Both the position numbers and the translations under genes were made by a program. This document shows, one piece after another, positions 1-50,372 of a stretch of DNA of 64,000 nt. Source of the DNA: Mayamaea pseudoterrestris. Its lineage: Eukaryota. The first letter of the stretch is position 1; every line of letters starts with the position of its first letter. The notes beneath the pieces were generated by a model that worked only from the letters and a program-made list of their open reading frames with translations, had not been told where the DNA came from and searched no databases. The stretch lies in assembly GCA_027923505.1 (NCBI GenBank), contig BROI01000002.1, positions 434,001-498,000 on the forward strand, in the 5' to 3' direction.

Positions 1-3000
1 TCTTCCAGTGCCTCATGGGCAAGGTCACTGATTACTGCAAGAAACTGATTGCTGCAGGTCTTCCACCAAGTCAAGCAGCCTCCGGCGCCATGTATGTCAT
101 CAAGAATGTGATCGACGATCTCCTACTGCTCTCCAATGACCGTCACTACCTTTGCTACGTCTTTGACTGCCTCTGTCAAGCATTCATTCACTTCCGGCTC
201 ACCTTCAAGTTGAAGAAATGCGACTTCTTCTTCAATCGCCTGGAATGGCTTGGTCACGACTGGACTCCCTCTGGCAATGTTCCTGCCCAATCCAAGTTTG
301 ACTTGATCCGCAACTGGGCCTTGCCCACAACGTCGCAAGCCCTCAACTCCTTCGTCAGCTTCTGTGGCTTCTACCGCAATTACCTACCTTTCTTTGAATA
401 TATCATCACACCACTTCGCCAGCTTATCCGACAGCACAAGCACTCATCCATCCCTCATACCGCCTGGTCTCCAGTTCTCCTCAAGCTTTTCAACCAACTC
501 AAAGCCGCCATCACATCTTCTCCCTGCCTAGCCCGTGCCGATTCCTCTACACCCTTCTTCATCAAAACTGACTGGTCTGCCAAGAGTGTTGCCTCCATTC
601 TCATGCAACCAGACAACTCCGCTGCCTCTCGAGCTGCACTTCTCGCCATGGATGCTGGTGCAGCATGCGCCTTTGACAAAACCAAATCTGGTGCCCGCCT
701 GCGTCCTATCAGCTTCAACCAGCGGAATTGCTCGGAAATTGAGACCCACTATCATTCCTTTGTGGGAGAGGCCGCGGCTGGTCGCTACGGCATTCACATT
801 AACCGTCACTTCCTCTGGGGTAAGAAGTTTTACTGGCTCTGTGACTGCAATGCCATCTCTGCACTGCTTTCCTACGAGGGTGACAACCATCTCCTTCGGC
901 GCTGGGCCATGGACCTTCTTGGCTATACCTTCGAGATCATCCATCGTCCTGAACGCATGATGCAAGATGTTGACGCCTTGAGCCGCCATTACGCACACTG
1001 TGATCCCTTGGTCCGGCAATATAACCTGCAGAGTGATGCCTTGCGCGCCGCCAGCTTCACTGCCAACCCAAGTCAGTTTCTTCCCGTTCCCATGAGTGCA
1101 CTTTCTGCACGAGGCTCCTATATTCCACCAAGCCAGCCTCCCTCAGCTACCTCCACCGCTGCCTTCTCCATCATGGATCCCCTGCCCTCGCCTGCCACTG
1201 TGCCTTCTACGCTATCAACATTCAGCACCATTCTCTGCAGTCATGGCATTCGCTCCTCCGCACGTCAATCGCCTACCAGCGTCATACCAGCCAACCCAAC
1301 TGCACCTCCTACCCTTCAGCACCTCCTTCATTGCGGAGTCAATGTTTCCTCCCCTGTGCACTCCTCTCCCTTGCCCGTCTGCAGTGACTCCAGCGCCATT
1401 GCATCCCACCTTGTGCATCAGCACTATCTTCCCTGGTTATCCATCAATAGCCCACCTGGCGTCCATGCCCTCAGCCATGACTGCATTTTGCCATCAAATC
1501 TTCTTCTGCTCCATCAGTGTGATTCTCGCCGTCAACTCTGTCAGCGCCTCCACTCTGCAAGCATTCATCGCACCTACGACCCGACAGCCCCCATCTTGTC
1601 CGATGCATCAACCCTTGCTGGCTTCTCTTCCTTCGCTGGCTGCGACTCTACCTACTCACCACGTGACGGCCTTCTTTCCACATGGTTATCCTCAACTCTT
1701 GCCCTCTTCACTGGCCTCAGTCACTCCCATGCTCTGCGCCACTTTGTCATCATTATTCCAACGACCATGAGCCCTTCACCATCCTCTACATCAAGTCCAC
1801 CTGCCTACCCTGACTTTGTTGCACCATGTCTTCATCTCCATTCCTCCTCTTGGACAAGCCATGCCTCCATCTCCTGGAGCCAGGACTTTGGTGATCGCAT
1901 TTCTCGAGGCACTCTCTACATTTTTGGTGTCTCCACCTCGGTTGCCGACTGCTCTTCCTTGCTCTCTGCCATCAGCACATTGCCTACCCTCGGCGCGGAT
2001 GCACCAGCCTACGGCGTTTTTGTGGACCGTCACCTCCATCAACCTTGTGCCTCTACTTCCGCCTGCGCCTTTCCCGTCACTCCATCTCCAGTTCACCCAC
2101 ACATTGACAGTTTTTCACCTTGCGTCATGGGCACACTTGACTGTCTGGGCACTTCTGTGCCCATCCTTCATCCCAGCCATCCTGCCTACATTCTTCCTCT
2201 CCTACCTGATTCACCCTTCTCTGGTAGCTTCGCTATCCCCTTCTACTCGCCAAACGATGAGCTTCAATACCGACCTTGCGCACCATCCGAGCTTCTGTCT
2301 CTCCTGTCCTTCAACCATCACTCCGCGGGCTACATTCTTACTCAGCCACTCTTGGACCAGCATCTCATCATTCAAGAATGTGCCGGTGTCGTCAGTCTCT
2401 CTACCATACTGCACCATGTTATTTCCACTGTGGCAGCCTCCGTCATGTACCCACCTCCCGCGGGCAGCATTGCTTGTTACACCTCCCCAGTCTCCCTGAT
2501 TCACCCATCTCAAATTCCGACACTCCCTGAATGGACAGCTGCCTACGCCGCTGATCCCTGCTGCTCTGCCATCATTGCCAAGCTTGAGTCTCCTGCACCA
2601 TGGTCATCTTCCGAACTCTCCAAGATCAACTCCTGCTACCGTCAAATGGCTCGCCTTCAAGCCTTTTGCCTCTCCAATGGTCGCCTCACAGTCTACACGC
2701 ACACTACTGATTCCACTCGCGCCCTCCTGTTGATTGTGGTTCCAGAATCCCTGCGCCGTCGCGTCTTTGATGCATTTCACGGCTCTCCTTGCGCCGGACA
2801 TATGGGACCAAAAAAGGTCCTTCTGCGCTTGCGTTTGCTTTTCTTCTGGCCCAACATGAGCTCGTTTGTACACCACGCGTGCAAGGCTTGTCCTGAATGT
2901 CACTTGGCCAATGCAACCTCTCGCCCATCAAGCACTCTTCTTCATGGCACTATCTTACAGCAACCCATGGCCCTTCTTCACATTGATGCCTGGATGCCCG

Positions 3001-4775
3001 GCGTCACCACATCCTTCTTTGGCAAGTACACTGGTATTCTCACTGTCGTCTGTGATTTAACCGGTTTTGTCGTTGTGGTTCCATACACCAAGGCTACATC
3101 TGCCAACTTTGCCCGACTGCTTGTGTCCGACGTACTCCTTCTATATGGCTTCTGCTCTGGTGTGGTCATTGATGACGATAGCAAGTTCAAAGGATTCTTC
3201 AAGTCCATGTGCACTCAACTTGGCCTCGCTTATCACGTCCTCTCCAAAGGCAATCATCAGGCCATGCGCTGCGAACGTGTCCACCGTTATTTTAACAAGG
3301 TTGCCAAGATTGAGTGCGGCAAGCGTGAGACCAACAAGGTGTTTGTGGAAGCCGCTAAGCTTGCTGGATACGCCTGGAATTGCATGCCCATTGACGGCAC
3401 AGACATTGTCCGCAGCTTCGTGGTGACTGGTCGAGTGTTCAAGTTCCCTCTGGAGGTTGCCTTAGAGACGCTCCTTGCTCCTACTGATAACGCCAGTCTC
3501 AGTCTGCAACGCTTCCTTACCAGCATATCGGATACTCATATCTTCTCGCGGGAAATCCTCTCTATCCTTGTGGCCGACCGCCGCGCTGCCCACCGTGAAG
3601 CCATCAATGCTACCCGCACTCCAGTTCATTACCTTGTCGGTGATCTGGTAACAGCCAAGCGACAAGTCTCCAGTGACTCTACTCAAAACCGAGTTGGCAA
3701 ACTCTCCTACGATGTACAAGGACCTTTCAAAGTTGTTGAAGTGACCTCCCACGACTCCTACATGGTTCAAAAATGGGATGATCCCGCTGCCCCTCTGCTG
3801 CGCTTCAAAGGTGGGCTTTTACACCCTCTGCCGCCTGTCCTCCAACCCTGCCTGCCTATCGATACCATTGATTACCACTACCTCAACATTGATCGTGCCC
3901 CTGTCTTGCACCCTTTCAAGAACCACCTCGGTATTGATTCTTACAACTATCTCTGGCTGCATGGCACTCCTCCCCCAGCCCGCAATCCAAATGATCCACC
4001 TCCCGCCATCCCTGCTCCCATCTCTGCCATCAACCCTTCTGTCCCTCGCCTCTCCGATCTGCTTGGTACTTCAGCTACGCCTTCCAACCCCTCCATCCCC
4101 GATGTGGTGCTGCAGCCATCATGTGAAGCAAGACCTACCAGACCTACCAACTTTGTCCTACGACATACCGACCCGTCTGTCTGCTGCACCGATCCAGAAA
4201 GCCTCTGTCACGCTATCCAGCAGTCACGTGACAAGCTTTTCTTTGTGACCTACCTTGCCACTGGAACGATGGTGCCCTCCCTTCACATGGTCCAAGTTGA
4301 TCTCAACTCCTCTGCATTGAGTCGCGACTCGTCAAACTACCGCACTAATGGAACCTACTATTGCAACTTTCAGAAGCGGCCGGAAAGTGACTCTAGCTTA
4401 CCCTGGAGCCAAAGCCGGTGGCGTACACACTGGTGTGAATTTCACAAAAGTACGGATGACGAATTGCTTTACGGCAAGACCGTCGAGTTTCGCCGAGCAA
4501 TCAAGGCCCCAGACTACTCCAGATACACAGCCTTTGCAAATTTCTTCAACCTTACTGACCCAGACACATTTGTCTACGGGCCCTTTGAGTTTGCGGATGA
4601 AGGTATCTTGCCATCTGGAGGCGAGAAGAGCCGAGAACGAGTTGAGAAGCTTCACTGGCTACGTCTGCAGGAAATTATCAAGGACAGGCCAAGCATTCCC
4701 TTCCCAAATCTCCTTCCTACAGACATCCAAGAGCCTCAAGCTATCCCTCCCTCTCTCAAACGAAGAAAGCACTAG
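1..4775 (+). mobile_element. Ty3/Gypsy LTR-retrotransposon pol ORF (RT - RNase H - large insert - integrase - C-terminal extension); 5' end lies outside the window
   Basis: Frame is open from the window edge (FQCLM...). RT motifs VIDDLLLLS, KLKKCDFF, WLGH, FCGFYRNY; RNase H IKTDWS, YHSFVGE, WLCDCNAI, DVDALSR; integrase HHCC (HGSPCAGHMG...CKACPEC), core LHIDAW / VIDDDSKF / CERVH, and QGPF. RT-RH-INT order is Gypsy-type. Confidence 0.93.
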
Positions 4776-4909
4776 ATTAATCACTCGGATAGTCTATTTG
4801 TTAACTCAAGTCATTCATCCAAGCCTTATTCCCCTCCTGCCAAGTTAGCCTGTCAGCCGCCTTTCAACCATTCGACAGCCATCTGTCAACTCCGCCCTCG
4901 CCTGCCTAA

Positions 4910-5546
4910 GCATTCCCAGCGTCGCCTTATCAGCCATTTTATCCGGTTAAGCCAGTGTTGTGTGATCTTTGTTGTTTGCCAGTCTTGTTGTATGAAAAGC
5001 CTTGTTGTGTGAAAAGCCTTGTTGTGTGAAAAGCCAGCCATAAAGCCATAAAGCCAGCCATAAAGCCATTCAGCCAGCCATAAAGCCATAAAGCCAGCCA
5101 GCCATAAAGCCATTCAGCCAGCCATAAAGCCATAAAGCCATAAAGCCAGCCAGCCATTCAGCCAAAGCCAGCCAGCCTTGTTCTCCTTCCTTTACTCAGA
5201 TCTTTTGCTATTCAGCCCTTGTCTGTCTCAGCATTATCAGCGTCACCTTGTCAGCATTTTATCCGGTTAAGTCAGTCTGGTGTGATCTTTGTTGTTTGCC
5301 AGCCTTGTTGTGTGAAAAGCCTTGTTGTGTGAAAAGCCTTGTTGTGTGAAAAGCCAGCCATAAAGCCATAAAGCCAGCCATAAAGCCATTCAGCCAGCCA
5401 TAAAGCCAAAAGCCAAAAAGCCAGCCAGCCATAAAGCCATAAAGCCAGCCAGCCATAAAGCCATTCAGCCAGCCATAAAGCCATAAAGCCAGCCAGCCAT
5501 TCAGCCATAAGCCAGCCAGCCTTGTTCTCCTCCCTTTACTCAGATC
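4910..5546. repeat. Tandem duplicated ~320-bp block in the retrotransposon 3' UTR, with internal 17-bp and 4-8-bp repeats
   Basis: Anchor ATTTTATCCGGTTAAG at 4936 and 5256. Each copy has three CTTGTTGT(G/A)TGAAAAG units, then AGCC/ATAAAGCC/ATTCAGCC runs, and ends CTTGTTCTCC..TTTACTCAGATC. Confidence 0.95.
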
Positions 5547-5671
5547 CTCTGCTGGTCTTGCGTTCACCGGGCTTTCGCGGGGCTGCTTTGTATTTATACT
5601 TACTCAGCCCAAAATATGGCATTCCTATTCAGGTGGCCGCCCGGAACCCTCATTCATGATACTTGCGCCCC

Positions 5672-5682
5672 AGGAAGAAGGA
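5672..5682 (+). other. Putative polypurine tract of the Gypsy element
   Basis: AGGAAGAAGGA followed immediately by TG (TGTGAAG), downstream of pol. Confidence 0.6.
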
Positions 5683-6127
5683 TGTGAAGCAGCCTTTGGC
5701 ATTTGATGCTCGACACCCTGCCGCCCGGCGTTCGAGCGCGACGAGCCTCGCTAAGCAAGGCGTTCCGTCCTAACAAAGCCCTGCGTTTGCCTTGCGCGGT
5801 CGTGACAAGTGCGTCCTGCCTCTAAATAGACTTGGATACTTAGAGAAATGTCACTTGGCGAGCCAGTCACGCCAGCGTGTTGGCGACTCAACAGCTCCTT
5901 CCACGGTGCTGGTTTCGATCCTTTTTGCCTCACACCCCTTGACCGACGAGCATCTCCTGCCTCTTCTGTCTCCTTTTGTTGCTCCTTTGCTCCTTTAACC
6001 ATCTAAACAAGCCTTTATCATGTACTTTGGAAACGCTAGCCAGTCTCTAACTAGTAGCCGCTCGCTCGGAGCACCCCAAGCTTCAAACGAAGGGTGCGCC
6101 AATGCGCCAATGTTCGCAGTTCGCACA
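5683..6127 (+). mobile_element. Putative 3' LTR of the Gypsy element (right boundary uncertain)
   Basis: Starts with TG directly after the PPT. Candidate CA ends are 6127 (TTCGCACA) or 6508 (CTTCACA, 7-bp inverted match to TGTGAAG). The 5' LTR is not in the window for comparison. Confidence 0.4.
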
Positions 6128-32801: not shown

Positions 32802-33895
32802 CTACCTCGTCAAATTGGACGCATAAGAAACCTTGGCTGTGATATCCTGCGCCAAGACCTCGTCGTAGCCCGATCTAAACTCTATGGCAGCACTAGGATC
32901 ATTGGTGTTGGGTTTGGCAAACTCAATTTTGAGAATCAAATGGTCGTAGCCTGAAGCGCGCGCGCAAGTGGTGAAATAAGAATGCAAGTTAGAACAAGTA
33001 ATAAGGTATGCATGAGGACAGCATACATATGTAAATGCATACCATGTCCCTGCAAACCCTCCATAGCTCGCTCCGCATCCTCCTTATTGACAAATGACAC
33101 GAAGGCAAACCCTCTACTTTCCATCGTTTCCTTATCCTTGATTAAGTAGACGCGCAAAATGGGTCCGTAGCGCGCAAACAGGTCTTGAATGTCCGACTCG
33201 GTGGTGCTCGTCGACAAATTGGTGACCCGCAACGTGTTCAAGTCATCCGTCTGGCGAAAGCCGCCAGTGTCGGGATTGACGAGTTCAACCCGCTGCGTCG
33301 GCGTCATGTACTCGCCGGGGCCAGCAGAGCCTGCTGCACCTGGCGTGGAACCTCCGCCGCTGGCCAATGAATTTTCAACCTGCGTCCAACCCTCGTTGCT
33401 GCCTCCTCCTTCCGCTCCAGGAGTACCGCCAACGTCATACTTGCGCTCCAACTGCCGGCGCTTCTGCTTGGCCCAAAAGGCATTCAAGTTTTCGGCAATG
33501 GCGGCGTCCGCATCCTGATCCTGCAAATCCGTGTTGGCGCGCGGATCCTCCAGTAGAGTTTCCTCCTTGCTTCGCACTGTGTTTTGGTTCTTTTCCTTTG
33601 TGTCAATCGCCGCTTGACCAAACTCCCTCCACTGCCCACGCTCCTGCATACGCTCGGCGTCCTTGGCGGTGACGGTATCCATGTTGCTCTTGGTGATTGT
33701 TTTGATCAATTGGCGCGAGTGCTTGGAGTGACGCTTGTAGGTGGTGGTGGTTTGAATTCCCTGGCTGACGAACCAAGACTCGATTGTGGGTGGCACGACA
33801 TCTTGTTCGTTGGCGTTACTGGAGGAGCCGCGCATTTCCTCGTCATCGGAATCGTCCACGTTTTCGCCCCAGCGGGGAGGAGTAGCTGATACCAT
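32802..33895 (-). CDS. EIF3G: Eukaryotic translation initiation factor 3 subunit G; 2 exons (33895-33043, 32950-32802)
   Basis: N-terminal RWGE..DD, ERGQWREFG, and RRM NTLRVTNLS..SRGFAFVSF. GTATGC..TTCAG intron restores LQGHGYDHLILKIEFAKP. Confidence 0.9.
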
Positions 33896-34298
33896 GTTTC
33901 TTGCTGGCTTGCTTATCTCGTTAAGAGAGAAACGCGAGCTTGAGAGAAAAGAAACGCCATGGCAGAGGCTCGCAATAAGAACGGTTCGCAAGAAAATCGA
34001 GACTCGTGATGGATGCGTGACCGAAGCAGTGTCATTCCCGTATGACGGTTTCCATGCTCATGTTGAGAACGACCAATGCATGCGAACATGCAAGCATGCT
34101 TACTTAACAAAATGACTGGATTGACATTAAGCGATCTTGCTTGACCAAGGTAAAAGTATCAGGCTTAACTAGATGACTGGATGGATTGGAGTCAAGATTG
34201 AAATAGGTGACCGCGAGAAATGGCAACAGCCTCGAGCGCGATTACAAAAACAAACTCGAGCAAGTCGGCACAAAACAAACGTTTTTGTAAACAATAAC

Positions 34299-34820
34299 AT
34301 GATCCAACGATTACCCAACATTCTCCTCGTTGCACTTTGTGCCATTTGCAGCAGCACCTTTCTTCCGTCGGTTGCAGCTGCAGCGACGACGGAACCGGAT
34401 GTTTGGATGCTTACGCTGCTGGGCAAGAATGATGAGGACGGCAACTGCAAAGCCCAAGCCGACGAGATTGGAACCTACGTGCAAGACACCTTCAACGCTG
34501 CCATTCCCGGAATCACTCCCTACGATCCAGTCGTTGACGATACAACCAATAGTAATCGCTTTCTGCGCAGCAGCAGTCGCCGCCAGCTTGCCATTAAGCT
34601 ATGCGCCCGCACCTACTGCTCCAAGCCACGCAACTGGGACGAGTGCTACTTTTCCGGATGCTCCTGCAGCTGCGGACGAAGCAGGCAATTGGCGGTCAGT
34701 GCCAGCAGCGACATGGCCCAAGTGCTGAAAGCCAAGCGCGACTTGGACAAGTGGGTGACGGCCAAGGGAGTGGAACTTGGATGTGAGCTTGGACTGGTCA
34801 TGGAGAAAATGAGGGGATAG
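34299..34820 (+). CDS. Secreted precursor with internal 6-Cys peptide (family member 1)
   Basis: Signal peptide; RFLR..RRQL-AIKLCARTYCSKPRNWDECYFSGCSCSCG-RSRQL. Confidence 0.85.
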   Translation: MIQRLPNILLVALCAICSSTFLPSVAAAATTEPDVWMLTLLGKNDEDGNCKAQADEIGTYVQDTFNAAIPGITPYDPVVDDTTNSNRFLRSSSRRQLAIKLCARTYCSKPRNWDECYFSGCSCSCGRSRQLAVSASSDMAQVLKAKRDLDKWVTAKGVELGCELGLVMEKMRG

Positions 34821-35362
34821 CTACTGGAGATGAGGATATTGAGACTCGCGTTTAGTCGGTCTCGGGCGCTGTGTACTTTCATAGCTCGCGCGAAGCGTTC
34901 CTGCGATGCGACCGTTGCTGGACGTTCATCTTTGGAAAGTGCTTAACGTTTGTGGCCTCTTTCAAGCTCGAGTGACTGAAACTTTTAATAACGGCGTTTT
35001 GCCATTGATGATAGATTTACATTATGTATATATGCCATCTTTCATCTAGGTAGCGACAACCATTCATCCTGACTGTCCATAGTTCCAGACAACTTGCTTC
35101 GCGTTGTGTAGCAATTTTGCATACTATTCCGTAGTGATCATCCATGCACTCATTCACTACTCGAGTACGTCTTTTGTGATGTACTGTACCTATGTACTTT
35201 CATAAAATAAAGAGTTAATATGACTGCGATAATTCTATCAGCAAGCGGCTTTGTAGCCTTGTTAAGTCTACGTATGAATTGGAAATGCAAGCGGCAACGA
35301 GCGAAGGGATCGTCATGGCCGAGGAAAGAAGGAATAAAAGGTGTTGCATGCATTCTCGTCTC

Positions 35363-35842
35363 CTAGGTCACCTTTTTCAACACCAATCCAAGCTCACAGC
35401 CGAGCTCCACACCCTTGGTGACAAGCATGGCATCGAGAATTCGCTTGGCTTCCAGAATTTTCGCCTGGTCGCTGGCATTTTCTGACACTAGCTCACGTCC
35501 TCGGCCGCACGTGCATGAGCAACCACTAAAGATGCAAACGTCCCAGTTGCGTGGCTTTGAGCAGTAGGTGCGGTCGCAAACGTTAATGGTGGTAAGCTCG
35601 CGGTGGACGCTGCGTAGAAAGCGGCCAGCATTGTCATCTGGATAGTAGGTGGTAAAGCCAGGGACGGCGGCGTTGAATACATCCTGGACTTGCTGACCTA
35701 TCGCATCGGCTTGGGCGAGGCAAGCACCGTTTACATCGTTTCGCCCGAGAACGTTGAGCGCCCAAAGGTTGGCCGGTTTGGCGGCAGAAACCGAATGAAC
35801 GCAGGCAAATGCAGCAAGGAGGAGTGACAGGATTTGGATCAT
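35363..35842 (-). CDS. Secreted precursor with internal 6-Cys peptide (family member 2)
   Basis: Signal peptide MIQILSLLLAAFACVHSVSA; RFLR..HREL-TTINVCDRTYCSKPRNWDVCIFSGCSCTCG-RGREL. Confidence 0.87.
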   Translation of the reverse strand: MIQILSLLLAAFACVHSVSAAKPANLWALNVLGRNDVNGACLAQADAIGQQVQDVFNAAVPGFTTYYPDDNAGRFLRSVHRELTTINVCDRTYCSKPRNWDVCIFSGCSCTCGRGRELVSENASDQAKILEAKRILDAMLVTKGVELGCELGLVLKKVT

Positions 35843-36642
35843 GTTGAAAGTCTGGAGGTGAATGGCTTGGACAATTTTGTCGAATTATGAGAGCTTGGAG
35901 ATTGGCGATTGTCGGGAGGCGTTTGATGAGTTTGTGAGTGCATTGCGCAGCATGGCGCCCGGCGAAAGTTTTTAATCGTCGAATCATCGTCGGAAATGGC
36001 CAGTGACTTGAAGGGCCTATTCGTCAATGACCACCGAAACCGTTCGACTGGTTAATTTAAGTAGGCAATGAATCAGTCAAAGTTCCGGTGAAATATCTGT
36101 CTTGAACTGTCGTCATTAAGGCTTAAGCGAGGCAATACACTGACTCCTAATCGTAAAATCTCGACGCCAAGGAATACGAACAATCAAACGAGTATTCCAA
36201 TGGCCTGGCGATCTCTAGCCATTTTGATTGGATCAAAGTCAATGGCACTCTGACATGCACGACTGACCGGCTTAGTCAGTAGAATGAAAACCACTGTTCA
36301 AGCGGACCTGCGAGGCATGTTGACACTTTTGACGAACCAACCTTCGGATACTCCGCGTGGCGCGCCAGCAGGAATTAAATCCATCGTAGCGGTACTAATA
36401 TTTAGCTATTTTATATTCACCGGTACAACCTACCGGTATGGACGATCGTCGCTTATGTTAGCTGATACATGATGAATGCCACGTACAGTGTAAAGTATCA
36501 TTATCGTAATACACTGCTTATGAACAACATTACTACAACGCGGTATCTAGTTAGGCTGGTTGTGGACCTTTTTTAGCATTTTCCTTGTCGTGCGACTCCA
36601 CACAAACTTGATTCACAAGCATTGCGCGTTATCAGATTTGCC

Positions 36643-37140
36643 TTATATGCCCAAGTCATTTATCGAGACTTGAGATAAAGTCACTCCAAGTATGCAGCCC
36701 GGAATAGATGCGGTAGCATTAGCCACAAACGTCATCAAAGCTTCGCGGGCAACTCGAATGTCTCCTCCACTCGCTTGGCCTTGTACAATTAACCGCCTCT
36801 TGCCACATGAGCACTTGCATCCGCTATAGTAGCAATAGTCGTAATTGGCAGGCTTAGAGCAGTAGCTTGCAGTGCAAACTTTTACTTGAAGTTCGCGACC
36901 CTTTGAATGCTTTAGATAACGTCGTCGCCCGGAGGCCCCAGTGTAGTCGCTTAATCCAGGAACAAGGCGCCCGAGCTTAGCCATCAAAGTGGGTCCTATG
37001 GAGTCACCCAAAGCGGCACAACGTGATGTTCCTGGAGCATCATTTCCGGCGACTGTAAGCTGGTATACTTCCGCGTCCTTTGCGACAGCAAGGCTCGTGA
37101 CTACAGATAAGAGGATGGCAACTATCTGAAATATGTTCAT
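36643..37140 (-). CDS. Secreted precursor with internal 6-Cys peptide (family member 3)
   Basis: Signal peptide MNIFQIVAILLSVVTSLAVA; RRRYLK..GREL-QVKVCTASYCSKPANYDYCYYSGCKCSCG-KRRL. Confidence 0.87.
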   Translation of the reverse strand: MNIFQIVAILLSVVTSLAVAKDAEVYQLTVAGNDAPGTSRCAALGDSIGPTLMAKLGRLVPGLSDYTGASGRRRYLKHSKGRELQVKVCTASYCSKPANYDYCYYSGCKCSCGKRRLIVQGQASGGDIRVAREALMTFVANATASIPGCILGVTLSQVSINDLGI

Positions 37141-37877
37141 TGTGTTCAAGTGTGATGTTGCCTTTGCGTAGATTTGAAGTCCGACCTTCACTTTCCGAAA
37201 GATAATGGTTGCATTCTACCGGTAGGCTGGTCGGCTGGTCCTACTTATTCTTTCGCTGTCACTGGCCGAACTGCTTTTACTCGTAGAATGAATCGCGCCC
37301 AAAGAAGCAAAGTACGGAGTAACTCCAGTACAGTACGTATGTACAGTAGGGCAGTGTCGAACCATCCGAGGAACAATGACAAGAGTCCATGTGTCTGGGC
37401 GTGGTATCTTTTCAGGCCGCCCTCCATTTTTCTCCTCACGTAGTCCTAAAAGACTATTGTGTGTACCCTTGCCCAGTGCCAACAATTCAATTCATGCCTT
37501 CCCAAGATTTTGAGGCTGAATTTTTAAATCTCGAGTATATGCTAACGGAACTCGTACAAATAGCTGTTACCGTATTGGCATTGCGTTTTGCGTGATTTAG
37601 TGCATTGTACATTGTAGCGGTTAAAGGCCTCGAGGCAATCGCAGCGCTATCACACCTAAGTTCAGGAAACCACCGGATTTTAGGCTAGTAGGTGTGATAT
37701 CAGACGTTTAATTTTATTAGTAATTCTAAAATGTCTCACAGCAGCTTTCGGTCGGCGCGGGTCGCACTCAATGTGCTCAATCTTGTTTTTCGGTTGGCCT
37801 TAACATTACACGTTTGCAATGCCCATGAGTATCGTCTGTCGAGCATCCAAAGCCTCGCAACGTTAGAGTCCTGGAAG

Positions 37878-38378
37878 TTACAAGCCAAACTCGTCAGAGT
37901 CCAGTTCCGTCATGACCATTTCCAACGTACAATCTGGAACCGTCGCGGCCGATGTTTTGACCAATTGTTCCATTGCCTTTCGCGCCACTTGAACGTCTCC
38001 TCCGTTGAGCTCCTTCGGTGCGAGCATGCGACCTCTGCCGCACGAGCATTTGCAACCAGAAAAGTAGCAGTAGTCATAGTTTTGCGGCTTGGAGCAGTAC
38101 GTTTTCGTGCAGACTTTTGTTTGCAGCTGGCGGTGCGTCTTTGATTTAGGTTCCTTCAAGTGGCGGCGGCGACGACGAGCGTTATAGTCACTCAGCCACG
38201 AAGCAAGGTTTTGAAAGGTTTCCATCACTTGCGGACCAAGGTTTGCTCCCAAGGTGGCGCACTTTGTTCCGGGTGCAGCGTTCCCGACGATGGACACTTC
38301 GTAGACGTCCACCTTTGCGGCGTCAGTCGCAAGTAGAAGCGACAGGAAACAGACAATGGCAAAGTGCTTGGTCATCAT
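37878..38378 (-). CDS. Secreted precursor with internal 6-Cys peptide (family member 4)
   Basis: Signal peptide MMTKHFAIVCFLSLLLATDA; RRRHLK..HRQL-QTKVCTKTYCSKPQNYDYCYFSGCKCSCG-RGRML. Confidence 0.87.
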   Translation of the reverse strand: MMTKHFAIVCFLSLLLATDAAKVDVYEVSIVGNAAPGTKCATLGANLGPQVMETFQNLASWLSDYNARRRRRHLKEPKSKTHRQLQTKVCTKTYCSKPQNYDYCYFSGCKCSCGRGRMLAPKELNGGDVQVARKAMEQLVKTSAATVPDCTLEMVMTELDSDEFGL

Positions 38379-39186
38379 ATTCGAGCATATGGATATGCAA
38401 GGAGAATGTCGCGGATTATAACAAGTTGCGACAGCAAGATCAAAAGTTGACCACCTGCTAAATTGACGAACAGAAACGGCGCTTGTCATTGGGGCATCAA
38501 ACGAGGGGCTAATGACTGTTGGGCTTCCTTTTGATACGCCGAAAAGGCCTTTCGCAATATCAGGCAATATATATGAAGCTTGCAATGAAAGTCACATGAC
38601 TTTTTCCTATGCTTCGAATTCGGAAGCTTTCGTCTTTGGATGACTCACCGATTGAGTACTCATGTCCCGTTGCAAGGAACGCCAAGCAATTCGGTCGGCT
38701 GCTCGACTGCCATGGCGGCGGCTTTCTTCTCGAGCGTTGTACTCCATGTACAGTACTTCCCTTGCCATCGTAGTTATGACACTTCTACCGTATCTTTAAG
38801 CGCTATCCTCTTAGGTATGTCTAGGAATGTGCAAGTTGTCTCCCGGCTGCTGCCACTGTCCCCCTTGCTTCGGCGATGAATCCAAATTGCAATATACCAT
38901 CTTTCGACTGATCGAACTTAACACGTTCATGAAAGAGTAGCACCCAACATGTACTGAGAAGCAAGTGAAGTCTCTCTTTAGAACGTTGATAAATGTTACA
39001 ACCATTTTATTGACCGTGCCCTCACTTTTCTTTCGCAGGGCGCTTGCAGTAAGCAGTCATCATGGCACATGGCACGGTCACCAGGTCATTTTATCGCATC
39101 AATCGGGAGAACCTTGGCCCTGCTCGTCCAGTCCCTTTATGGACCATTGCTAGTGAGTGATCAAACAAATTTAGACACGAAATCGC

Positions 39187-40431
39187 ATGTTTTCATCCGA
39201 CAAGTCGACATCCATTATGAACAAGCCTTGCAGTCAATCATCCTTTGAAACGAGCTGCAGTGACGACGATGACAATGAGATTCTGACGAATGATTTATGC
39301 ATGCATCGCTCAATTACGTTCCGAGGAAGATACATGTTTGCGACAATGCTCGTCTTGATCTTGGGTGCCTTTGGAACGACAACCTTTCAGCAATACGCAG
39401 CAGATAGTCAAAAAAGTAACATCATGCGTTCCTCCGATGCATCGATTTCATCATTCACGTCTCTGGAGCTGACAGACGATGGAAAGGTGACTTGGACGAC
39501 GCGGCCGTCGCCTCCCGCAGGTTCCTTGCTTGATCCAGTGATTGAAGCGTTTCGACAAGGAATGACGATTGATGCCGCAAGCATTGCCATTCACGCTCCT
39601 CGTGCCTCCTCCGACTGCTCCTGCTATAATACTACGATAAAATCACCCGATCCATGCTGCGGTCGCTTTTACATTCGCGGCCACAAAATGGGTATTCAGT
39701 TGGTTTCGCTGCTGTTTCCAACCTTCCACTTTGACAATCGCTATTTACCACTCAACGCGAAGCATTACGTTGACTCGGACTTGCGCGTGGCGGTCGTGTT
39801 GCGAAACGTTTACGAGTCCATCGTGTCGGGCTATCTCTATCACAGGCAGGGCCGCGAGTGCTACACGGATCCCAATGGTTTGCCGCTGCGCGACAAGGCG
39901 ACGCATCAGCCAAAAATTGGAAACACTGACTTTGTCAAGTATACAACTTTTCTCAATGATACGACATTAGCAGCATTTAGTAGTAGCAACCAAACAATCA
40001 TTGCTGGCAATCTGTGTCAGTTCATCATGGACGAGCCGGTGGAACGTGGCATGCGCGCCTACATTGACTTTGTCTTTCGCGGCGACTACTACAAAAGCAG
40101 TCTGTTGGCTTGGCGTGCCTTGTCGCAGCACATTGACTGGATTGGCGACTTAACCCACGTTGCGTGCTACGAAGACCTCATGACGAATCGAACGGAAACG
40201 TTGCACGAGCTACTACATTTTTACTATCCATCCGGCGTTCCGCCGGCAATGGCAGCCAAAGTTGGCAGCAAGCTTGCGTCGCGATCAAATGTTACTTACA
40301 GTGGACCGCACGCGACCAACCACGATGCTGACTTGAGGGCGAGCTTGGTGAATGTTGTCAAGGCGCTTGACAGTGAATTCTACCATGGGCAGATTGCTTA
40401 CGAGGATTCCATGACTCCTTGCGGCAAGTGA
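39187..40431 (+). CDS. Type II membrane sulfotransferase-like protein
   Basis: TM MFATMLVLILGAFG. GHKMG resembles the 5'-PSB loop, VVLRNVYESIVSGYLYH resembles the 3'-PB motif (RxxxxxxxS), and CYEDL follows. Confidence 0.65.
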   Translation: MFSSDKSTSIMNKPCSQSSFETSCSDDDDNEILTNDLCMHRSITFRGRYMFATMLVLILGAFGTTTFQQYAADSQKSNIMRSSDASISSFTSLELTDDGKVTWTTRPSPPAGSLLDPVIEAFRQGMTIDAASIAIHAPRASSDCSCYNTTIKSPDPCCGRFYIRGHKMGIQLVSLLFPTFHFDNRYLPLNAKHYVDSDLRVAVVLRNVYESIVSGYLYHRQGRECYTDPNGLPLRDKATHQPKIGNTDFVKYTTFLNDTTLAAFSSSNQTIIAGNLCQFIMDEPVERGMRAYIDFVFRGDYYKSSLLAWRALSQHIDWIGDLTHVACYEDLMTNRTETLHELLHFYYPSGVPPAMAAKVGSKLASRSNVTYSGPHATNHDADLRASLVNVVKALDSEFYHGQIAYEDSMTPCGK

Positions 40432-45925: not shown

Positions 45926-48461
45926 GTTCCGCTAACATCGCTACCATTCGTAGACTTCGCAATGACACAACGCCCGAGTAAACTGAATCCTTCGGCGGCT
46001 CTGTCATATGTCCTCCTGCAACGAGTCGTGCTTTCCGTCGCAAATCGTGCTTGACATCGAATATCATGTGCACGTTTATTCGTTTCCACGGCGCCGGCAT
46101 AACCTTACCGACTCCTTGATCTGCGAACGTGTCGTAATCATTTATCTGATTTAATTCCGTTCGAATCGCATCCGTCCACAGCGTGTTGCCGTTGATCTCG
46201 TCGAGAGCTTTCGCATCTTTATAATTGCGCGGCAACCTTACGCCGAATTTGTAGCGTACGCCGTTTGCTTTCGATTTTCGTTTCGCCGCTGTTACCATCT
46301 GTCGAAACTTCTTTCGCTTCCGAGTGTAATGCTCCAGCGCTGCTTCCATCCTGGCTTGTCGAGTAAGCCGTGCTTGAGTCCATACTCTGCGATCGTTATC
46401 GGATCGTCCTTCTTCATGATCGCGAGAGGCTCCCACGTCGTCGTTCCGTCAGTCCATTCGACGAGAACGTTACTTGAACTTCCTTTGTATGTCGGATCGT
46501 TCGGTTTCAAATTAAGCTCGTGTCCGATTACCTTCGTGAATACCCACTGAGTCGCCGGATCGTTTCGTATATCTTCGTCCATCTGTCGTTCGATTAAATC
46601 CGACAGTTCGTTGTAACTTATTAAGTCTTTCGCTGGCTCCTCTCCCATTTGGATTAGGAAACCTTTCGTCGTTTCCGAGTAGCTCGTTATCGCGTACTTC
46701 GATATATTCGCATACAGTCGCTCGCATTTTCTGACCGTTTTCGTGTTCCACCCTTACGAACGTGCGTCCGATGAGTTCGCTTGGAGAGAACAGAGGGCAT
46801 TTATTCCCTGATTCTTGCTCAGCCCTTCTGAAGAACTTCGCTGGTACGTTGGCGTGGTTCGCCATCGGAATTGTTTCGTCGTCGTTTCCTTCGTAGTTGT
46901 CGTGACTACTTTCTGTCACATGCGTGCTATGGTAGCGTCCTGTCGCGAGATCTGGAGTTTCAAAATTTCGCTCGCTTGCGCGTGTAGCTTCTTCAGAAAT
47001 CTCCCCCTCCAGACTCAGGGAAGGAAGGCAACTCGTGGTAACAAGTAGCTGCGCGAGACCACGTTGGAGCGCGGAATCGCCTGAAGCGTGTCGTCCGTCA
47101 GAACGAGAAAAGTCATGCGGACCGCTATTCTCTGCGATGCCCACGAATCGGCCGTTGCCAGATCGTACCGCCGAGGGAAAGCTCCCCTGCGCCTCAAACG
47201 TGACCGGTTCCCACCACTTGAAATGTAACAAAGGCGGAAATATCCGGCAGATTTCCGAACGCAACTTCCGTTGGCGCGTCGCCATCCCAGCGATTTCGTC
47301 GCGAGGACGTTCAGTATCATGATTACGAATTTAATCAGCAAAACCCAGCAATGGCCTGGCGAACCCGAATCTCGTTGGAGGTTCTCCATCATTATTTAAT
47401 GTGCGACGTGTGACGTTCGCATGGATTTTGTTCTGGATGACCCGGTTCTGTGGTCACTTGAGGAATATTGTACATCCGACAGAGATCCCTCACAGCCTTG
47501 CCAGTCTCCGACTCGGCATTGTCGCTGAGCAGTCCGTTAGGAGCGCCCACTTCGCGGATAAAATCCTCTAACGCGTTTGACATTTCGCTCTCCGACTTCA
47601 TCGGGTAGCCGCGCGTGTAAAAACTTTCTCGTCCAACAAAGAGCTGCATCTTAGTAGCTCCCCATGCCCTAGAAATTCCATCATCCAAAGCTGGCGTGTC
47701 AGAGTGTATCGTGTCCGTGGCGAATAGTTCGCGCAACCGCTGAACGTTCGCGGCCGGAAATCGTGATTTCGTGAGGTGTCGAAATGGTAATCGCGGGTGT
47801 GCGCTGAGATGATACCATGCTTCCGTGTGACGTAAAGTCTGTTGAACGCGCTCAGTCGGGACCCATCCGAGGTAACGGGCCGAAGAGCATTATAGTCCGG
47901 TTCCTTGCTTCTTAGCTTCCGCAAATTAACGCGTGAAAACTGAGCGTGTCGCACGCACCGATTGATCAGTACGTCAAGTTCGTCGCCAGTGCGTGTCGGC
48001 GTGTGACGATTGCGGTGCGTGATACCGTCATCATCGAATCGTTCGTCGAAAGATCCATAATCATGATCTCGTTCGTCGAAATCGTCGTGCGCGTGCTCGA
48101 CATCGTAAACAGTCGAGTCCCACGGCACGTCCGACGTCATGATGACAGTCGGATACTTATCCAAATCATCGAACGTGGGTTTCGTCACGTCCAAGTACAC
48201 CAGGCCATCGCGAATTGCCAATGGCAAAACGTAGCCTCCAATGTTCGTCGTAATTCGTTGCGTTCCGCCAAACATGGTCGGAATATCGTCGACGCGATGT
48301 CCCATTGCGCGCAATTGATTCGGGCAATGAATCGTCGGTCCGTCTCGCTTTAAAAGCATACTGGTGACACAGAAGCAGAATGGTTTCGCCACTAAGGGTC
48401 TTTGCCAGTCCAGCTGCAGTGCCAATCTTGAGAGCTGGGACAATATGATCGTCAATACCAG

Positions 48462-50372
48462 TCACATCCACCTCGGCGTTCGTTTCCGAAACGACGAGCA
48501 TGTCTCCTCCGCATAAGCCTCCGTTCGCGCCGCTGTCGATGAGCGCGCCTTCGTTGATCCGCTCGTAGTGTGCGCGATTGACGCGCAACGACGATGCATG
48601 TTGAAGCTGAATGTACCTCGTCCGGTGTTATCAGTCGTCAACGATCCTGTCACTTGCTGAGTTGTAGTACTCGCATTGTTCGCTTGCAGAACCGATCGTG
48701 CAGCCGTTTGGACTGACATTCCACTATTGCCGGGCTGAATATTAATCGTGCCAGGAACGCTTGCGTGATCGTTCGCTACAGATTCCGTCGCGTGACGCTC
48801 TTGATGCGCCGCGTTGACTTGCGTCTGCGTCGTAGCCGTGCCTCGTTGGTTGCGCGGTCGCCATCCGTTTTCGGGTGTCTTGGGCGCCGTCGCACGCTTG
48901 TCCTTCAACTGCTTTCGCTGATCAAACTTCATCTCCAACCAGACTTCATCCTTCACGCTCGCGTGAGGTTTCTTCATGATCGCTGCAAATCGTTCCGCCG
49001 ATAAGCCGCTTGGAGTCGCGCCGCCATTGCCGCCGCCGCCTCCTTTCGTTCCACTAGACTGCGCTTGATTGATTGTGCGCTTAGTCTTCGTCGTCGATGG
49101 GTGTTTCTTGTCATACTTGATGCAGCACTCTTCTAAGTGCGCGTACAACTGCGCGAAATTGTCTTCCGAGTCGTGTTGCCCCATGTGTTTCTTGATGGCA
49201 ATCATTCCGTCAAAACCTGCTAGTGATGCGCTGAATCCTGTGTGCTCGGAGAAAGCGTCGCGTAGCATGTCGTATCGTTGTAAACCTGTCAGAGCTTCTG
49301 CGTCCATTTCGAGCAGCCAGATGACTTTCTTGTAGAACAGTGCGAGAAATTCGATCGTCGGCCGTGACCACTTCTCGGTCAGCCGCATTCCCTGCAGTTC
49401 CGTTCGCGCGCGTTCCTTCTCGATGTGAGCAGTAGCGCCTTCTTCGTATCGCGTTCGCAATCGTTGGTAGACTTCGCGTCCGTCCATCGTCTTCTTGAAC
49501 TGCTGTACTGCGAGTGATGCAGACGGAGTTCGACAGTGCGTGAGAAAGATCCTGTATACAAACACATTCTTCTTTGCATACGCCTTCTGTTCTTTCGGTC
49601 CCTTTTCCTTCGGGTCATAATCGTCGTCAAAGACTTCGTGGAAGTCATGCAATGTAGCGATGACTTTCAACTCGGAAATCCACTGTTTCCACGAGGAATC
49701 CAGCTTCATTTCTTTACAATCCCTCGCCGAGAACTTGATAGACTTCGTAAATTGGTCTGAATACTTCTCGTCGTCTTCGTCGTCGCCGAGGTCCAGTACG
49801 GATGTCGGTGACTGCTTCGTGTCCACGTCCACACTCGTCGGTGGCACCTTGTCGGCCGAGTCAGGCTTCGACTCGTTGCCTTCGTTCGTTAGCGTGGAGT
49901 CCTTGGATTCGTCCTTCTTGGATTCCGTTTCGCTTTCCTTCGCTGGAGGTTTCGCTCCGCTTCCGCTGCCCACGCTCGCAATGTTGCGCGCTTGGACTCG
50001 TTCCTTCGCTCGTGCTGTGACGAACGTCGCCAGCGTTTCGGTGGTCAGTTGCGACCATGTCTTGATGTCCGGCGACTCTTGCGCCAAATACCATTCGATC
50101 GCGTTCGTGATCGTGCGTTGTTTCATCTTCGTTAGCGAGTGTTCGCTCGTTTCCTGCGTGACATTGTCGCCATCGTCAGTCGTCGTCGTTGTCGTCGTCG
50201 TGACGTTCCACTTCGTCGCGAAATCGTCGTACTCCATCTCGATCAGTTGCGTAAGCGATTCTACTCCGAGTTCGTCGAATAACTCCTTGAACTGAGGATC
50301 TTGGAAAACGCCTACGTTCTCTTCGTAAACATGCGCAAACGCCGCGTCTTTCTGCGCGCGAGTTTCCGCCAT
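48462..50372 (-). CDS. Gag-like ORF of the Copia element
   Basis: Uninterrupted ORF from MAETRAQKD with DGREVYQRLRTRY. The native frame probably continued into protease near 48590. Confidence 0.75.
   Translation of the reverse strand: MAETRAQKDAAFAHVYEENVGVFQDPQFKELFDELGVESLTQLIEMEYDDFATKWNVTTTTTTTTDDGDNVTQETSEHSLTKMKQRTITNAIEWYLAQESPDIKTWSQLTTETLATFVTARAKERVQARNIASVGSGSGAKPPAKESETESKKDESKDSTLTNEGNESKPDSADKVPPTSVDVDTKQSPTSVLDLGDDEDDEKYSDQFTKSIKFSARDCKEMKLDSSWKQWISELKVIATLHDFHEVFDDDYDPKEKGPKEQKAYAKKNVFVYRIFLTHCRTPSASLAVQQFKKTMDGREVYQRLRTRYEEGATAHIEKERARTELQGMRLTEKWSRPTIEFLALFYKKVIWLLEMDAEALTGLQRYDMLRDAFSEHTGFSASLAGFDGMIAIKKHMGQHDSEDNFAQLYAHLEECCIKYDKKHPSTTKTKRTINQAQSSGTKGGGGGNGGATPSGLSAERFAAIMKKPHASVKDEVWLEMKFDQRKQLKDKRATAPKTPENGWRPRNQRGTATTQTQVNAAHQERHATESVANDHASVPGTINIQPGNSGMSVQTAARSVLQANNASTTTQQVTGSLTTDNTGRGTFSFNMHRRCASIAHTTSGSTKARSSTAARTEAYAEETCSSFRKRTPRWM

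Follow-up and report, generated by a model that had tools for sequence, protein, structure and literature searches.

Four clustered genes of Mayamaea pseudoterrestris as candidate precursors of a cysteine-rich secretory peptide

INTRODUCTION

Diatoms rank among the major primary producers, yet to our knowledge almost nothing has been learned about signalling or defence by peptides in these organisms; the pheromones and allelochemicals known from them are either small molecules or unidentified factors. The DNA analysed here (hereafter the window) is a stretch of 64,000 nucleotides from the raphid pennate diatom Mayamaea pseudoterrestris (GenBank assembly GCA_027923505.1, contig BROI01000002.1, positions 434,001 to 498,000) that bears, at its positions 34299–38378, a cluster of four paralogous genes, termed M1 to M4. 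Each specifies a protein with a hydrophobic N-terminus and a central six-cysteine core bracketed by R-x-L tripeptides (RxL), which raises the question of whether the protein functions intact or serves as a precursor from which the core is excised. The results partly support an undescribed family with an excision-type architecture, that of a cysteine-rich secretory peptide precursor that would be processed by the RXL route of diatoms. The reading we favour, with a probability of about 0.5, is that the precursor is cut at its RxL sites, in the manner of silaffins, releasing a peptide of ∼29–35 amino acids with three disulfides.

RESULTS AND DISCUSSION

Four intronless genes under purifying selection

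A reading made from the letters of the window only (the sequence-only reading) had described four intronless paralogs with a six-cysteine core at this locus, and all four open reading frames (ORFs) were found as described. Each gene is a single unbroken frame, and the alignment with its homologs extends over its whole length. When nine family proteins were compared with the window by tblastn, exactly four copies were detected at E ≤ 1e-15, the next best match having an E value of 0.12. M1 (P0001; 34299–34820, + strand), as defined by its ORF and translation, specifies a 173-amino acid prepro-protein of subtype A. Its ATG at 34299 was preferred over an in-frame ATG located upstream, at 34173, because homologs begin at the equivalent Met. 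The M1 core and its brackets (34581–34691, + strand; residues 95–131) consist of RQL, a 29-amino acid six-Cys segment ending in CG, and RSRQL. M2 (P0002; 35363–35842, − strand), whose nearest relative is P0005 (63% identity), specifies a 159-amino acid prepro-protein also of subtype A; REL, a 30-amino acid core and RGREL are found at 35489–35602 (− strand; residues 81–118). The other two genes belong to subtype B. M3 (P0003; 36643–37140, − strand) specifies a prepro-protein of 165 amino acids, with REL, a 29-amino acid core and KRRL at 36790–36897 (− strand; residues 82–117), while M4 (P0004; 37878–38378, − strand), again defined by ORF and translation, specifies one of 166 amino acids, with RQL, a 29-amino acid core and RGRML at 38022–38132 (− strand; residues 83–119). 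A longer ORF for M4, reaching up to 38489, is probably not used; the homologous sequence P0010 begins at the second Met of M4.

Over the full-length alignment, M2, M3 and M4 are 57%, 35% and 34% identical to M1, respectively. The alignment of the four paralogs contains 30 invariant columns, including eight Cys: C50 in the N-terminal part, C102, C107, C116, C121, C123 and C125 in the core, and C162 near the C-terminus (M1 numbering). The sequence-only reading had missed C50 and C162, counting six invariant Cys instead of eight. Its description of the core was nevertheless borne out by the four-way alignment, as regards both the spacing C-x4-C-x8-C-x4-C-x-C-x-C-G and the invariant string Y-C-S-K-P-x-N-x-D-x-C-x-x-S-G-C-x-C-x-C-G, and so was the division into two subtypes, with NWD in M1 and M2 and NYDY in M3 and M4. 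The motif pairs that it had placed upstream of the cores (RFL..RQL, RFL..REL, RYL..REL and RHL..RQL) are all present, as are the segments placed downstream (G-RSRQL, G-RGREL, G-KRRL and G-RGRML). As for the signal peptides that it had assigned to the four proteins, the N-termini are indeed hydrophobic (maximum Kyte-Doolittle 11-residue mean of 2.7–3.0 in M1–M4), and it is this heuristic that marks them as putative signal peptides. A hydrophobic N-terminal stretch was found in 18 of the 19 family members aligned (maximum 11-mer mean 2.0–3.85); the N-terminus of the remaining one, P0023, scores 1.65 and looks 5′-truncated. No plastid-type ASAFAP-like motif was seen by eye in the N-termini of the family.

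The proportion of nonsynonymous sites that differ (pN) was well separated from that of synonymous sites (pS) in the mature region, being 0.28 versus 0.70 for M1–M2 and 0.33 versus 0.83 for M3–M4; the four genes are real coding genes under purifying selection. Together with the recurrence of the pattern across the family (see below), this shows that the pattern is not a product of chance. Synonymous sites are saturated between the paralogs (pS 0.7–0.8, with many undefined Jukes-Cantor values); pN alone is usable and dN/dS is not estimable. The longest stretch conserved between paralogs is the core DNA of M1 and M2 (34591–34679 and 35501–35589), which is 81% identical over 89 nt and has a pS of 0.39, about half that of the flanks (0.79). 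This low value could reflect local gene conversion, a constraint on codons or RNA or, with 29 codons compared, small-sample noise.

A rare and unannotated family

When 1.84 billion representative proteins were searched with a profile, 16 matches were obtained at E ≤ 1e-3, nine of which were at E ≤ 1e-10. A few further relatives came from word-indexed searches of 5.8 billion clusters; with M3 as the query, the word-indexed search retrieved only M3 itself. The relatives total ∼25 sequences and, as far as sequence comparison can tell, the family is real but rare. P0010 corresponds to GKY94559.1, annotated as 'hypothetical protein MPSEU_000421500 [Mayamaea pseudoterrestris]', and differs from M4 in eight alignment columns, including a one-residue length change in an Arg run; the other named matches are all simply 'hypothetical protein'. 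Fragments P0017, P0018 and P0020 end where the core starts and were excluded from the alignment, the tree and the counts. P0021 and P0024 (E values of 5e-5 and 6e-4, respectively) are long repetitive proteins without the core and were dropped as spurious, and a metagenome contig locus (L001) turned out to be a chance match to FCQKPRNWDE within an unrelated 691-amino acid protein.

Comparison with Pfam gave nothing at E ≤ 10 for M1–M3 and only a sub-threshold match to DUF1088 for M4, while a search with 19 members and the four cores gave no match above threshold. Sequence searches of the PDB reached at best an E value of 0.38 with the family profile and 1.2 with the cores, and the ESM Atlas offered no usable match for M1 or for the core of M3. 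No account of the family was found in the open-access literature searched for diatom cysteine-rich secreted peptides and RXL propeptides. The family thus has neither a Pfam or PDB sequence match nor a description in the open-access papers searched, as the sequence-only reading had anticipated.

A maximum-likelihood tree was built with 21 full-length members, leaving out the three fragments and the two false positives. It contains a subtype-B clade of seven rows that includes M3 and M4 (support 93/96), and it pairs M1 with P0008 (94/94) and M2 with P0005 (86/83). P0007 and P0008, each from a 5782-bp contig, probably lie on one and the same contig. The two pairings and this likely shared contig suggest that the duplication that gave rise to M1 and M2 took place before one or more other species branched off; the tandem arrangement is probably older than that split as well.

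RxL tripeptides are invariant on both sides of the core

The 19-sequence alignment averages 32% column identity, and just 12 of its columns are invariant. They comprise R87 and L89 in the distal RxL and R95 and L97 in the proximal one, the six Cys of the core itself, G126 and, in the RxL that follows the core, R129; N112 comes close to invariance, and no flank residue is invariant. The R and L columns of the linkers have a pairwise identity of 1.00, the adjoining columns values of 0.09–0.42, and islands of this kind are the signature of a short linear motif. The L131 column scores only 0.63 because some members have the downstream motif shifted by 1–3 positions. In each of the 21 full-length members, two RxL precede the core, a further RxL starts 0–5 residues past the C-G, and the cysteines follow the framework C-x(2-4)-C-x8-C-x4-C-x-C-x(1-2)-C. 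The proximal RxL lies 3–5 residues before the first Cys in 20 of the 21. The exception is P0015, where an acidic insertion of ∼20 residues between the two, a feature of one lineage that is also seen in fragment P0020, places the RxL 26 residues ahead of that Cys.

Across the 19 aligned members, mean pairwise column identity increases from 0.20 in the signal region to 0.28 in the N-flank, 0.37 in the first linker and 0.53 in the core, and is 0.42 in the second linker and 0.26 in the C-flank. The value of pN is 0.16 in the core versus 0.29 (M1–M2) and 0.37 (M3–M4) in the flanks. By both measures the core is more conserved than its flanks, in agreement with the sequence-only reading.

The flanks are predicted to fold together around the core

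The full-length protein was modelled with AlphaFold2 from a 19-row alignment (mean predicted local distance difference test score, pLDDT, of 72; predicted template modelling score, pTM, of 0.53). The model has strands at residues 34–43, 130–133 and 163–171, helices at 49–68 and 138–160, and a 2-residue strand near 73–74. The flank elements show ten-residue block means of pLDDT 82–97, at least 91 across residues 41–70 and 141–170, and the core shows block means of 66–75. Values below 50 are limited to residues 80–98 and 125–130, which are the stretches with the three RxL brackets. When the full model was compared with the PDB using Foldseek, there was no match at E ≤ 0.001. An exhaustive comparison with VIA-align returned ferredoxin-like alpha+beta domains only, with Z scores of 7.3–5.4 that are within the tool's range of common arrangements; the best was the C-terminal segment of aIF2-alpha (Z 7.3, root-mean-square deviation 3.0, 80 residues), and the dimerisation domains of M20 peptidases were also found (Z about 6–7). 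A ferredoxin-like sandwich has the topology beta-alpha-beta-beta-alpha-beta and a four-stranded antiparallel sheet; in this model, the flanks resemble a generic sandwich of the type beta-alpha ... alpha-beta that is split by the core, which takes the place of the would-be central hairpin.

The distribution of cysteines outside the core agrees with a bond between the flanks. Eighteen of the 21 members have one Cys in the N-flank and one in the C-flank (in P0023 these are at other positions), two have none in either (P0022 and P0029), and one has two in the C-flank and none in the N-flank (P0019), so that the flank total is never odd. Despite having no flank Cys, P0022 and P0029 retain all six core Cys. 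From these counts, which they would fit, we infer three disulfides within the core and a separate flank–flank bond. The sequence-only reading had overlooked that the flanks are clearly conserved and are more than spacers or simple pro-regions: they are predicted to co-fold, with pLDDT values above 90, and carry a covarying pair of Cys.

Proposed excision of the core and alternative readings

RXL is described as a cleavage motif of diatom secretory precursors in passages of three papers (PMC4557024, PMC5525289 and PMC5647440), and one of these passages has RXL domains proteolytically removed 'by a yet unknown protease' (PMC5525289). In the present family, the three RxL are taken as putative cleavage sites because they are invariant, symmetric around the most conserved segment and located in variable linkers that are predicted to be flexible. 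What stands of the excision claimed by the sequence-only reading is therefore the setting of the brackets, which are as conserved as the Cys, lie in segments with pLDDT below 50 and match a documented motif; cleavage itself is what we infer from them.

The precursor would be organised, in this order, as a signal peptide, the strand and helix of the N-flank, a flexible linker with two RxL, the compact six-Cys core, a Gly followed by basic residues and an RxL, and the helix and strand of the C-flank. The two flanks would co-fold as a single small unit of the ferredoxin-like alpha/beta type, its halves separated by the inserted core, and in most members a flank–flank disulfide would probably staple the halves together. 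The diatom endoprotease that acts after RxL in the precursors of silaffin, silacidin, cingulin and frustulin would then cut on both sides of the core. Cuts after the proximal upstream Leu and the downstream Leu would generate peptides of 33–35 amino acids, with masses of 3740.61–3936.70 Da when three disulfides are formed. The basic tail may subsequently be trimmed, by analogy with silaffins, which lose a C-terminal RRIL or RRNL; the trimmed peptides would have 29–30 amino acids, end in C-G, and show masses of 3187.23–3325.35 Da, a net charge of +1 to +3 and 3–5 aromatic residues. For M1, the predicted peptide spans residues 98–126 and has a computed mass of 3244.31 Da with three disulfides; the corresponding trimmed peptides of M2, M3 and M4 come to 3325.35, 3187.23 and 3301.31 Da, and the forms of M1, M2, M3 and M4 that retain the terminal RxL to 3884.69, 3936.70, 3740.61 and 3914.66 Da, respectively. 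After the cuts, the N- and C-flanks would persist as the two chains of a carrier that acts as a folding scaffold or pro-domain, and the peptide might be a conserved extracellular effector in signalling or antimicrobial defence. Such a signalling or antimicrobial role is a conjecture, and the defensin-, toxin- or pheromone-like function put forward by the sequence-only reading is purely so, since nothing in this analysis bears on it. The scheme in its specific form, in which a split ferredoxin-like carrier presents a cystine-rich module to the RXL protease and two cuts free a peptide of ∼3.2–3.9 kDa, is offered tentatively, at somewhat less than even odds. A peptide housed inside a split carrier domain would be an unusual design, if the model is right.

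Several points weigh against excision. The core modelled alone with AlphaFold2 (4-row alignment) gave a mean pLDDT of 58.3 and a pTM of 0.26, a poor model that does not demonstrate an autonomous core fold. The flanks are predicted to fold confidently and are under purifying selection, which leaves room for the uncut protein to be the one that functions; if their Cys are paired, the bond would keep the 'pro' parts together as a stable product, which is unusual for a disposable propeptide. In the lineage of P0015 and P0020, the insertion would give rise to a longer excised peptide, or else a further, different cut would have to occur there. RxL is also found within the C-flank helix of several members, and the tripeptide alone is not specific. 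The hint of transcription presented below comes from runs of unrecorded library type. Finally, according to passages of PMC5647440, RXL sites are known to date solely from biosilica-associated proteins, and the role of RXL in precursor processing 'remains to be proven'.

Some of these observations would be accounted for if the genes specified secreted or cell-surface proteins of ∼135–145 amino acids that are not cut around the core, that is, a ferredoxin-like domain with a disulfide-rich finger in a loop, the RxL residues serving in sorting, partner binding or hinge contacts. Consistent with this, both halves of the flanks contribute to one domain predicted at pLDDT above 90 (its structure matches being generic only, Z 7.3), the flanks are under purifying selection (pN 0.29–0.37 versus pS of about 0.79), their Cys covary, and the core scores better in the full-length model (66–75) than alone (58). 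An uncut protein, however, leaves unexplained why symmetric R(x)L motifs located in variable, low-confidence linkers should provide the sole invariant residues other than Cys and Gly, and why an insertion of ∼20 residues is tolerated beside one of them; neither would it be expected from the lack of any invariant residue in the flanks. An intact functional form is thus conceivable, but we consider it rather unlikely.

The restricted occurrence reported for RXL sites (PMC5647440) also suits a role in the frustule, in which a cut at RxL would remove only an N-terminal 'RXL domain', as modelled on the loss of the N-terminal propeptide in silicanin or cingulins, leaving the core and C-flank to act at the silica deposition vesicle or the frustule. 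A signal peptide followed by an RXL domain is indeed given as the hallmark of biosilica-associated proteins in part of PMC5525289. The composition of the mature proteins is nevertheless ordinary (S+K 9.0–14.3%, D+E 5.7–12.8%), with neither the repeats nor the low-complexity tracts that typify silaffins, silacidins or cingulins; the RxL downstream of the core shows the same conservation as the two upstream; and a flank–flank disulfide would hold the 'removed' N-terminal piece in place. Moreover, the family is found in few organisms (∼25 sequences), whereas silica formation is universal in diatoms. A biosilica protein is therefore improbable, distinctly more so than an uncut secreted one.

A Gly followed by basic residues is the formal consensus of amidation precursors. 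On this basis the sequence-only reading had the excised peptide end in a Cys-amide, produced by peptidylglycine alpha-amidating monooxygenase (PAM) from the conserved Gly and the basic residues after it. The pattern itself is clear, as C125 and G126 are invariant, basic residues come next in all members, and R129 is invariant. These basic residues are, however, accounted for by the RxL site, an R-x-L with R or K upstream, as in the RRIL and RRNL of silaffins. C-terminal amidation is in addition very improbable because stramenopiles, among which diatoms, oomycetes and brown algae are named, 'completely lack PAM' according to a passage of a review (PMC6529398).

Comparison with known systems

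The RXL-processed precursors of diatoms (silaffin Sil1p, silacidins, cingulins, frustulins and silicanin-1) share with the present family an N-terminal endoplasmic reticulum signal, putative in the family, and RxL at the ends of the units that are, or would be, released. In the family, basic residues also stand just upstream of the Leu (K/R-R-x-L), as in the RRIL and RRNL of silaffins, which passages of PMC4557024 and PMC5525289 indicate to be absent from the mature forms. Unlike the family, these precursors are repetitive, of low complexity, lysine/serine-rich or acidic, and associated with biosilica, while the family has a single, non-repetitive six-Cys module within a predicted folded domain, and an ordinary composition. 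Nothing in Pfam links the family to the known RXL-processed diatom proteins, and no sequence similarity to them was detected.

The RXLR effectors of oomycetes, a related stramenopile lineage, likewise have a signal peptide followed at some distance by R-x-L-R/K, and their motif is proteolytically processed before secretion according to PMC11754927. The distal motif of the family reads R-x-L-[RK] in 16 of the 19 aligned members. It differs, however, in being located 55–70 residues into the protein and in being one of three, and the family shows neither a host-translocation context nor a WY/LWY domain, the Pfam search being blank. We know of no host for this free-living diatom.

As regards the layout of the precursor, in proinsulin and in the sunflower PawS1 albumin (in which the SFTI-1 trypsin inhibitor is embedded) a bracketed internal segment is excised and the remaining chains stay disulfide-linked. 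These precursors, as generally described, differ from the family in sequence, organism and protease (dibasic convertases and asparaginyl endopeptidase, respectively). In the family, by contrast, the disulfide-rich part would be the one excised, and the carrier would be a split ferredoxin-like unit.

The core resembles knottins, CS-alpha-beta defensins, hevein-like peptides and the oomycete PcF/SCR proteins, in the frameworks commonly given for them, in having ∼30 amino acids and six Cys; being mildly cationic and aromatic-rich, and borne by a secretory precursor with pro-regions, are also traits of small cysteine-rich peptides in general. The defensin framework is CxxxC ... CxC, hevein-like peptides have an adjacent CC, and knottins, with their 1-4, 2-5, 3-6 connectivity, usually have a final loop of four or more residues. 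The core departs from the CS-alpha-beta defensin framework, since none of the 21 members has the CxxxC pair (the spacing is 2–4, 8, 4, 1 and 1–2). Unlike hevein-like peptides it has no adjacent CC, and its last loop, of only 1–2 residues, is shorter than is usual in knottins.

If the proposed processing does take place, diatoms would have their first described family of secreted peptides that are ribosomally made and disulfide-rich, a candidate for a pheromone or for an allelopathic or antimicrobial signal. An RXL substrate would then be known for the first time beyond biosilica proteins, which would make RXL processing a general diatom pathway akin to that of prohormone convertases. Were the peptide to exist, both its unusual Cys framework and a precursor design in which a folded carrier houses the peptide would be novel in peptide biology, and the four retained paralog lineages, two of them older than a species split, would encode distinct ligands. 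The predicted peptide masses give defined targets in culture medium, and a compact substrate with three invariant RxL sites offers a handle on the RXL protease, to which passages of PMC5647440 and PMC5525289 refer.

Expression data and haplotypes

Region 33800–38800 was compared with four sequencing runs, none of them listed as RNA, that are of unrecorded library type and kept as contigs; uncovered parts and depths are not interpretable in such data. One run covers the whole region. Two runs with ∼16 Mb of contigs each contain pieces at 34257–34994, including all of M1, at 36539–37237, including all of M3, and at 37701–38070, covering the 3′ portion of M4; in one of the two there is a further piece, at 35540–35742 within M2, with a depth of about 1–2. 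Contig pieces over the gene bodies are compatible with transcripts of M1–M4, and provide a weak hint of transcription. In two supplementary files of the Mayamaea genome and copper-response paper, the M4 ortholog and five neighbouring gene numbers were absent, apart from an unrelated GTPase.

The run that spans the region contains a second contig with seven substitutions and a 3-nt deletion at 38118–38244, within M4. The deletion, at 38170, removes one Arg from the run that precedes the distal RxL, and M4 and P0010 differ in this same way. This second contig probably represents the alternative haplotype of a diploid.

Other features of the window

The genes neighbouring the cluster are eIF3g-like, Nsp1-like and Mon2-like, all ordinary eukaryotic housekeeping genes, plus four without a Pfam match; these neighbours offer no functional link to the family within the window. 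At positions 15–4775 (+ strand) there is a 1586-amino acid ORF with RT_RNaseH, RT_RNaseH_2 and Integrase_H2C2 domains that runs off the start of the window and is the pol region of a long terminal repeat (LTR) retrotransposon. Positions 1–6000 show a strong strand bias, with a GC skew of −0.33 to −0.21 and an AT skew of −0.17. A second region of marked AT skew (−0.17 to −0.22) is found at 46000–50000, where a 636-amino acid ORF without a Pfam match lies at 48462–50372 (− strand). Adjoining the cluster, at 39187–40431 (+ strand), another ORF without a Pfam match specifies 414 amino acids which, as judged by eye, include many Cys and one hydrophobic segment around residue 50; it possibly encodes another lineage-specific secretory or membrane protein.

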